A stretch of DNA of 54,778 nucleotides, from the IMG/VR virus record IMGVR_UViG_3300028400_000008, positions 1-54,778 of that record; one strand, 5' to 3'. The first letter of the stretch is position 1. Each line of letters begins with the position of its first letter. The position numbers and the translations under genes were made by a program. This DNA is from a virus (lineage: Duplodnaviria; Caudoviricetes). Under the pieces are notes generated by a model. The model made no database searches, was not told the DNA's origin, and was given only the letters and a program-made list of their open reading frames with translations. Positions 49,896 to 50,486 of this stretch are shown piece after piece.

Positions 49896-49990
49896 TCCAC
49901 GCTGCTGCGTGGAATACCCACTGCGTTGTTGGGTGGTGGCGGCCTACCTTGTCCGCCAACAAGGTAGGCTCTTCGGCTGTGGCGGCAGCC
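49896..49990 (-). ncRNA. GC-rich four-hairpin element with complementary loops (candidate structured RNA or ssDNA signal)
   Basis: Stems at 49896-49913, 49916-49934, 49942-49969 (loop CCGCCA) and 49975-49990 (loop TGGCGG). Confidence 0.55.
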
Positions 49991-50054
49991 TTATTCGTGC
50001 ATTAAATGAACCACCACAATGGAACCACCTTGCTTGAGTGGCTCTATGTAGTGG

Positions 50055-50486
50055 TTATATCTCTATTTCACTAATATCTATTTCTTGCTTTTCTTTTGCT
50101 TGATCTTTTTTGCCATAGAATTTGAATTTATCTTTTAATTCATCTGGTAGATGCAATATATATTTGTTTTTTCCTTTTATTTTAGAACCACCGTGTTCAA
50201 GATACGATATTTCTTTTTTTAACAATCCTTTTTCTTGTAGAGATTTAATGTGTTTGCTTACAGTAGCCTTACTAATACCAAAATCTGAATAAGAAAGATA
50301 ACAATATCTGTTTCCGTATCTAAATGACATTTCTGCAATAATATCTATTATTGCTATTTCTATCATGCTCAAATCTTGTATTCCTCTTTTTTGGTACAGC
50401 CATTTCTTCCACTCACTTATTATCCAATCGCCTGATTTTACGATTTTTTGCGTAGGCTTCCAATTCTTGTTCAGTGTATCCTTCAC
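50055..50486 (-). CDS. Winged-helix protein resembling phage/plasmid replication initiators
   Basis: LS..EIAI...I......YG...CYLSYSDFGISKATVSKHIKSLQEKGLLKK...KNKY.L. Confidence 0.7.
   Translation of the reverse strand: MKDTLNKNWKPTQKIVKSGDWIISEWKKWLYQKRGIQDLSMIEIAIIDIIAEMSFRYGNRYCYLSYSDFGISKATVSKHIKSLQEKGLLKKEISYLEHGGSKIKGKNKYILHLPDELKDKFKFYGKKDQAKEKQEIDISEIEI

Follow-up and report, generated by a model that had tools for sequence, protein, structure and literature searches.

A hairpin cluster with complementary loops in the replication operon of an N4-like phage as a possible antisense control site

The UUGGCG sequence is a recognition loop in the replication control of plasmid R1. It is also the recognition motif of plasmid ColIb-P9, where the CGCC partner directly precedes a masked SD and a leader peptide sets it free (PMC4705826); a first-pass annotation of the DNA considered here had named this role of the loop in ColIb-P9, and the source bears it out. 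YUNR loops are described as typical recognition loops in connection with RNAII of plasmid pMV158 (PMC4485353), and cleavage by RNase III has been suggested for the lambda OOP RNA (PMC5869508). Ref55 (Rfam RF02838), catalogued as an orphan sRNA, is listed in a supplementary table as a 53-nt RNA with a TSS-type start, opposite flanking genes of the E. faecalis prophage Phage01 (PMC4408782, Table SF); a literature search for Ref55 by name returned no relevant paper among the matches listed.

The hairpin cluster and its genomic setting

The window is the whole of IMG/VR record IMGVR_UViG_3300028400_000008 (54,778 nt), the record of an uncultured phage with 127-bp direct terminal repeats and 37% GC. 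Its gene content is N4-like, with portal, capsid, terminase, primase and Sak4 genes together with a 3046-aa virion protein. Most matches to its ThyX, 54 of 74 records, are from Campylobacter phages, which points weakly to a host among the Campylobacterota. The 49 ORFs scanned include neither a DNA polymerase nor an N4 RNAP II gene; the C-terminal part of the primase matches primase-polymerase families (phrog_695), and this protein may be the replicative enzyme of the phage. Two other parts of the genome are mentioned in passing. The ORF at 53087-53758 (region 53050-53900) is unusually hairpin-rich, with strong intrinsic-terminator-like hairpins on both flanks, and the 100-nt window of lowest folding energy in the genome begins at 53051. 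The long frame at 40309-41067, whose first part overlaps a separate 56-aa ORF and whose true start is probably the internal MINFISH, is a second Cas4/PD-(D/E)XK-like gene adjoining that at 41012-41752.

The hairpin cluster occupies a 233-nt gap between a winged-helix, initiator-like ORF and a 112-aa ORF that is followed by the helicase and primase genes. Its earlier placement ahead of the helicase genes is therefore upheld, the cluster lying within a replication operon between a CopG-like and initiator-like pair and the helicase-primase genes. The features are as follows.

50413..50622, minus strand: CopG/Arc/MetJ-type ribbon-helix-helix (RHH) protein, 69 aa (ESM Atlas features 0.94; homologues upstream of the winged-helix gene in relatives)
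50055..50486, minus strand: winged-helix (wHTH) protein with a replication-initiator-like N-domain, 143 aa (PF13730 HTH_36 above cut-off; phrog_270/391/678, replication initiation)
50008..50056, minus strand: H0, imperfect hairpin with GAACCAC twice (50008 and 50022 on the plus strand) and GAGCCAC once (50044 on the minus strand)
49975..49990, unstranded: H1, 5-bp GC stem with loop CCGCCA on the minus and TGGCGG on the plus strand (sequence and folding)
49970..49974, minus strand: linker GAAGA, 5 nt, between H1 and H2 (sequence)
49942..49969, unstranded: H2, perfect 11-bp stem with loop (U)UGGCGG on the mRNA strand and CCGCCA on the plus strand (sequence and folding; Ref55-like)
49937..49942, minus strand: second CCGCCA, overlapping the base of H2 (sequence and folding)
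49916..49934, unstranded: H3, weak hairpin of -3.8 kcal/mol, refolding on the plus strand as 7 bp with two G.U pairs (folding)
49896..49913, unstranded: H4, 7-bp hairpin with a 4-nt loop (folding)
49820..49834, minus strand: SD AAAGGA (49834-49829) and start codon of the 112-aa ORF
47942..49483, minus strand: SF2 helicase
45033..47093, minus strand: N4 gp43-like primase (phrog_2135)

The GC-rich island of consecutive hairpins reported on the first pass is found by sequence and folding at every one of its places: no other 95-nt window of the genome is as GC-rich as 49896-49990 (0.64 against a mean of 0.37), and the 191-nt region folds at -74.3 kcal/mol with z = -5.8, none of 200 shuffles being as good. 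The second CCGCCA likewise sits at the base of H2, running from 49942 to 49937 and beginning on the last base of the stem; it could also serve as loop in a weak alternative hairpin (-3.6 kcal/mol). The degenerate hairpin that had been described at 50008-50056 is present as H0, but its heptamers are nothing special, GAACCAC occurring 135 times genome-wide. On the mRNA strand the H2 loop has the YUNR U-turn motif, and a U.G pair can alternatively close it to a GGCG tetraloop. CCGCCA is not enriched in the genome as a whole (10 seen, 8.6 expected) and is clustered locally only, a GCCGCCA(C/A)-like word standing three times within 50 nt. A single DNA run labelled as a hydrothermal vent metagenome, which may be the source of the window, showed no variants at the cluster and is no evidence either way. 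An IS200/IS605 end or a REP element was set aside: there is no transposase in the genes scanned and the element is single-copy in the genome.

Relatives were reached via helicase alignment, a wHTH search of viral contigs having given none of 20 candidates, and the nearest relatives, P0002/P0005 at 71-76% protein identity and P0003 at 87%, are known as proteins only. Four distinct relatives carry the same small-gene pair, with wHTH identities of 54-56% (L019 and L021), a weak 30% (L018) and 36% over 53 aa (L178). All four have, upstream of the pair, an iteron array with a sigma-70-type promoter, as the window has at 50651-50839:

50704, 50726, 50753 and 50781, unstranded: four iterons GTTCA-N5-TGAAC (22.1-23.5 bits)
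50809-50839, unstranded: long AT-rich palindrome beside the iterons
50656-50651, minus strand: -10 TATAAT, with the iteron array
49997..50011, unstranded: fifth iteron-like site GTGCA-N5-TGAAC, 6 nt from H1 (15.0 bits; next best in the genome 7.1)

None of the four carries the hairpin cluster after the wHTH stop, so that the conservation looked for in relatives with the same upstream genes is absent (0/4); in L019 the wHTH stop is immediately followed by an RBS nearly identical to that of the window. A hairpin with a CCGCCA loop was also absent from the 12 related records or loci searched. Since the array is kept in 4/4 relatives and the cluster in none, the array 700 bp upstream is the conserved origin-like element and the cluster is lineage-specific. 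From its sequence, the array at 50704..50839 is likely an origin or operator, and array, promoter, RHH and wHTH genes together are a candidate plasmid-like replicon or operator in N4-like phages. The module lies at 3530-3715 in L019, 5680-5865 in L021, 7700-7905 in L018 and 1090-1245 in L178, and from relative to relative the iteron letters change as the wHTH helix sequence does.

Loop complementarity and a possible antisense unit

The loops of the adjacent hairpins H1 and H2 are exactly complementary over 6 nt (CCGCCA/TGGCGG), as had been noticed at the outset. The complement is real and beyond chance: at local composition the 6/6 match has p about 4e-4, and a background of 190 loci (1.46 Mb) contains 86 distinct pairs of neighbouring hairpins, none of which reaches 5 nt, whereas in the window one pair of 4 does. 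It can be hypothesized that the H1 loop kisses the H2 loop within the operon mRNA, or that the second CCGCCA replaces H1, gating the helicase-primase genes without any antisense RNA. Such a switch in cis would profit from an exact GC-rich complement unseen in the background, from a 6-bp kissing duplex worth at most about -9.9 kcal/mol, and from loop and partner letters, UUGGCG/CGCC, that are those of ColIb-P9 (PMC4705826). In a crude model with both stems intact, however, the stem bases lie ~50-62 A apart (0-45 degree kinks) for a reach of 35-42 A of the 5-nt linker, and the kiss, though possible, would be sterically strained and require ~2 frayed base pairs or a 60-degree kink. In an H-type pseudoknot the partner strand needs a linker to cross the stem. 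The second CCGCCA adjoins the stem without one, so that a pseudoknot of this type is impossible unless much of the stem opens, and the alternative pairing that had been proposed for this copy is not sustained: no linker spans the 10-11-bp stem, and nested alternatives that use the copy cost +9.2 (P about 1e-6) and +13.2 kcal/mol.

A switch in cis also has no visible output. The CGCC copies (49985-49980 and 49942-49937) are both distant from the SD of the 112-aa ORF at 49834-49829, which lies ~60 nt downstream of H4 and is mostly unpaired in the folds; no minus-strand terminator was found in 49400-51100; and among leader frames inspected by eye none is convincing, a 21-codon GTG frame overlapping the next start and having no SD. 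A 3-codon frame (ATG CAC GAA TAA, 50001-49990, minus strand) behind GGTGG, which overlaps the fifth iteron-like site and ends at H1, may be chance. Pairing in cis as the main function is, on balance, unlikely, and the proposed loop-to-loop pairing is unproven because no examinable relative keeps the cluster.

The Rfam search that had been suggested as a check gave no match in the window at the gathering threshold but a sub-threshold likeness of H2 to Ref55. At a relaxed threshold H2 agrees with the Ref55 consensus in 24 of 28 nt, with one compensatory pair and over model positions 19-46 only, scoring 26.7 bits, below the gathering threshold of 43; by a rough estimate the chance of such a match across all Rfam is near 1e-3, the Infernal figure being E 0.12. 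With a search pattern widened to take in the window's own letters, 18 distinct Ref55-like variants (34 rows) were collected, the named ones being from Enterococcus and the others from IMG/VR; the best identity of the window hairpin and flank to one of them is 27 of 33 nt (L163). L147, L153, L156, L157 and L160, which have no full stem, and L174, with a partial one, were dropped from this count by the stem pattern. Searching phages and plasmids by BLAST for the region or the element gave nothing or short chance matches, a 17-nt exact search gave 11 viral loci of which none has the hairpin (most being antisense tRNA or coding), and strict 26-28-nt patterns gave none in viral and genome contigs; looser patterns gave 30 + 5 matches, several by chance without a full stem.

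The anatomy of the variants is consistent. An antisense extended -10 of the form TGnTAnnnT is located 23-28 nt from the hairpin in 17 of the 18, and many of these -10s overlap the SD or start of the next gene. The loop is directed as in the window in 6 variants and oppositely in 12, and facing either way is expected when sense and antisense loops kiss. In phiFL4A, Ref55 lies in the early operon and scores 74.4 bits. From these sequences the Rfam family Ref55 looks like one of prophage counter-transcripts. At L131 4854-4908 and at L136-L175, an antisense extended -10 near the next SD or start and a terminator hairpin are seen together, and the loop flips between phages. Owing to G.U pairs, the family stems are biased towards the antisense strand; in the window the stem is perfect and no strand is indicated. 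Covariation in a 12-row alignment is weak, with 3 pairs and 24 of 500 shuffles as high. The stem pattern shared with the window was found in only 1 of 401 Bacillota genomes, the centre genome itself, and is therefore rare by chance; a Ref55 search of two whole Bacillota genomes was insensitive, missing the hairpin known in G012. Related phages (7 records) gave no Ref55-like match better than E 0.26. A 6-nt loop complement within 150 nt is absent from all 28 other loci that fit the loop pattern, so that the Ref55-like family leaves H1 unexplained and H1 and the second CCGCCA are the window's own.

Two further features, both predicted, would frame the cluster as an antisense unit:

49884..49892, plus strand: extended -10 match TGCTATAGT, candidate antisense promoter with an inferred start near 49899
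49899..49996, plus strand: predicted antisense RNA of ~100 nt with four hairpins

The extended -10 lies 49 nt from H2 and a terminator-like site stands at the far end of the cluster, where H1 is followed on the plus strand by TTATTC. Between the two, H2 is followed on that strand by CTCTTCGG and then by H1 and TTATTC, with no U-tract directly behind its stem. The plus strand at 49893-50000 folds with z = -4.2. With these elements in view, the cluster is tentatively read as a cis-encoded antisense control site in the replication operon, consisting of a counter-transcript of ~100 nt and a U-turn target, together with cis copies of the loop complement; a probability of roughly 0.42 is attached to this reading. 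The hairpins, the loop complement, the position and the likeness of H2 to an antisense hairpin family are observed at the locus.

From these we infer promoter use, the RNA itself, kissing and an effect on expression. Host RNA polymerase would read the plus strand from the extended -10 and yield a four-hairpin RNA ending at H1 and the U-tract. Its H2 loop (CCGCCA) would first kiss its counterpart in the operon mRNA, the U-turn loop UUGGCGG of H2, after which a duplex would form upstream of the orf-helicase-primase genes and expression would be reduced, most likely via RNase III cleavage or transcriptional interference, as with lambda OOP RNA. Since the predicted RNA stops ~60 nt before the next SD, direct blocking of the SD is out, and RNase III or interference would be the route. 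The H1 loop and the second CCGCCA would be cis copies of the antisense loop that compete with it, in a ColIb-P9-like logic, or alternatively a mere product of local duplication.

The upstream CopG-like and initiator-like pair, which is the setting of pMV158 RNAII, counts in favour of the antisense reading. Counted against it are the 16 matches of type TGCTATAGT on the plus strand genome-wide, of which that at 49884-49892 is one; the terminator-like site, the only one in 49400-51100, where shuffles give 0.8, so that H1 with TTATTC is not significant alone; an RNA that misses the SD, unlike Ref55-type RNAs; and the absence of the cluster from all four relatives with the gene pair. In relative G003, TGCTATAAT stands ahead of its RHH gene. 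The regulatory RNA switch for the replication genes that was first proposed thus survives in its operon position, its UUGGCG loop, the likeness of H2 to Ref55 and its antisense promoter and terminator frame, but not in the second-copy pseudoknot or the ColIb-P9 logic.

The same evidence may be turned towards a lineage-specific filler, that is, a captured terminator-type hairpin with local duplications and inversions, providing at most RNA-stability or processing hairpins and having the complement as a by-product. The cluster is missing from 4/4 relatives, three GCCGCCA(C/A)-like words stand close together, and the loops of the Ref55-like family flip orientation, so that local inversions do happen. 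Such an origin is rather improbable, since the perfect 11-bp stem, the five hairpins, the strong folding score and a GC content unmatched elsewhere in a compact genome speak for selection, and promoter-like, terminator-like and iteron-like sites bracket the cluster exactly.

DNA signals, the giant virion protein and the word GAACCAC

The cluster may also act as DNA. H1 and H2 would then be one hairpin signal (a stem with a CCGCCA/TGGCGG hexaloop) present in inverted orientation, either as divergent promoters of a virion RNA polymerase or as priming or loading sites beside a winged-helix binding site, so that the primase-loading site first proposed falls under this reading; an inverted pair of one signal shows the same loop on each strand, and complementary loops therefore arise automatically. 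The fifth iteron-like site 6 nt from H1 agrees with this, as does the position of the densest GAACCAC cluster of the genome at 50000-50999 (11 copies against 5 in the next kb). The virion RNA polymerase of N4 uses template-strand hairpin promoters (PMC4496689). In the 3046-aa virion protein, polymerase motifs A, B and C follow one another in the N4 order, and a 57%-identical relative keeps them; G002 and G003, whole relatives that have the RHH-wHTH module and no cluster, are without polymerase motifs. By the account in the same source, however, N4 promoters need a G.A-type loop and -11/-10/-8/+1 contacts (PMC4496689), whereas the window loops are of 6 nt, and no GC-rich GNA-triloop hairpin occurs in the early region. 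The polymerase domain is recognized by motifs only, with no profile or PDB match and a single-sequence fold of pLDDT 32; G009 has a vRNAP-like protein and no CCGCCA hairpin; the conserved origin-like array lies elsewhere, and the Ref55 likeness is not accounted for. A DNA signal is accordingly considered less probable than the antisense reading, though more probable than the switch in cis or the filler.

The giant protein (24405-33545) has its RNA polymerase motifs A/B/C at residues about 1551, 1637 and 1852-1878. It matches phrog_2206 at E 1.6e-49, with the best stretch C-terminal and no domain match for the polymerase part. Shorter counterparts (1745-2178 aa) in G002, G003, G007 and G008 are without polymerase motifs. 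A bolder combination, speculative and quite improbable, would have a virion RNA polymerase of N4 type, highly divergent, start from H1 and H2 as inverted hexaloop DNA-hairpin promoters next to an initiator-binding site, one of them firing into the helicase-primase genes and the other towards the iteron origin, with early transcription coupled to priming; the promoter type would be unlike the N4 triloop, and the same hairpin would double as the antisense recognition loop shared with Enterococcus prophages.

The word GAACCAC is a matter separate from the loop question. Its copies (63 on the plus and 72 on the minus strand, against about 12 expected) fall inside genes in all frames, 23 genes holding 76 against 11.6 in synonymous shuffles, and inverted pairs form hairpins at gene ends (21957, 34723, 41931, 47113). 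All related records counted are enriched, on both strands, in GAACCAC or GAACCAA (GAACCAA 156 against 26 in G002, GAACCAC 47 against 5.5 in G003). No such enrichment is seen in phiFL4A or in Nitratiruptor phage NrS-1, whose 37 kb contain 7 copies of GAACCAC. All five relatives whose genomes are whole or nearly so have the primase, whether or not they carry polymerase motifs. The primase-polymerase of NrS-1 primes at TTTGGTTA and GTGG (PMC8718748), and as these words are close to (G/T)TGGTTC, priming sites are the likeliest reading; by this analogy GAACCAC is a candidate primase recognition word. The word may also be a host Chi site; in NrS-1 it is not enriched, and a literature search on Chi motifs in Campylobacterota found nothing. 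ATAGACG (26 against 6.9) and GGAATAG (29 against 9.2) are secondary enriched words.

Comparison with known systems

If the antisense reading is true, a plasmid-style control set, made of a CopG-like repressor, an initiator-like protein with iterons and a U-turn antisense site, would run the replication genes of an N4-like phage of lytic appearance, and a hairpin otherwise known from Enterococcus prophages alone would recur in an unrelated phage by transfer or strong convergence. Ref55 itself is suggested to be a prophage counter-transcript family. Should the DNA reading hold instead, the cluster would supply the promoter used by a novel type of virion RNA polymerase. The cluster is a single instance without covariation, and its worth is that of a testable lead.

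Among described systems, Ref55 of the Enterococcus prophages V583 Phage01, phiFL4A and EFC-1 shares with the window a near-identical 11-bp stem, a TG(G/A)C(G/A)G loop, an AAGA flank, a place in an early or replication operon and a candidate antisense extended -10 on the same side. The window differs in scoring below the cut-off, in having no U-tract directly after the stem, in a -10 at 49 nt rather than 23-28, in an RNA that leaves the SD uncovered, in four additional hairpins and two cis loop complements, and in belonging to an unrelated phage type and probably an unrelated host. The rep leaders of ColIb-P9, IncB and IncL-M, with their Inc antisense RNAs, have in common with it a UUGGCG target loop in an mRNA hairpin (here H2), CGCC in cis and on the antisense strand, and a position upstream of replication genes; unlike them, the window has no CGCC beside the SD, no SD-masking stem and no convincing leader peptide, its partners lie 0 and ~20 nt from the hairpin and are not long-range, and the downstream gene is not an initiator.

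The copG-rnaII-repB region of pMV158 resembles the window in its RHH repressor and initiator-like gene and in a short counter-transcript ending in a terminator hairpin, an anatomy that the Ref55-like variants share with RNAII; there, however, RNAII is encoded between copG and repB, where it spans the start of translation, whereas the site in the window follows the initiator-like gene. Lambda OOP RNA (pO-oop-tO) is likewise a short antisense unit in a phage early operon just before the replication genes, for which RNase III is plausible, but it overlaps 52 nt of cII, and the predicted window RNA overlaps no gene. With the early hairpin promoters of N4 the window shares a giant virion protein with polymerase motifs and short GC-rich DNA hairpins ahead of early genes, while its 6-nt loops, the lack of a G.A-type loop, the inverted pair and a polymerase too divergent for a profile or PDB match set it apart. 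Taken together, the cluster seems, tentatively, to behave like an antisense site of the CopA/Ref55/OOP type, standing outside Ref55 by score and outside the ColIb-P9 switch by anatomy.
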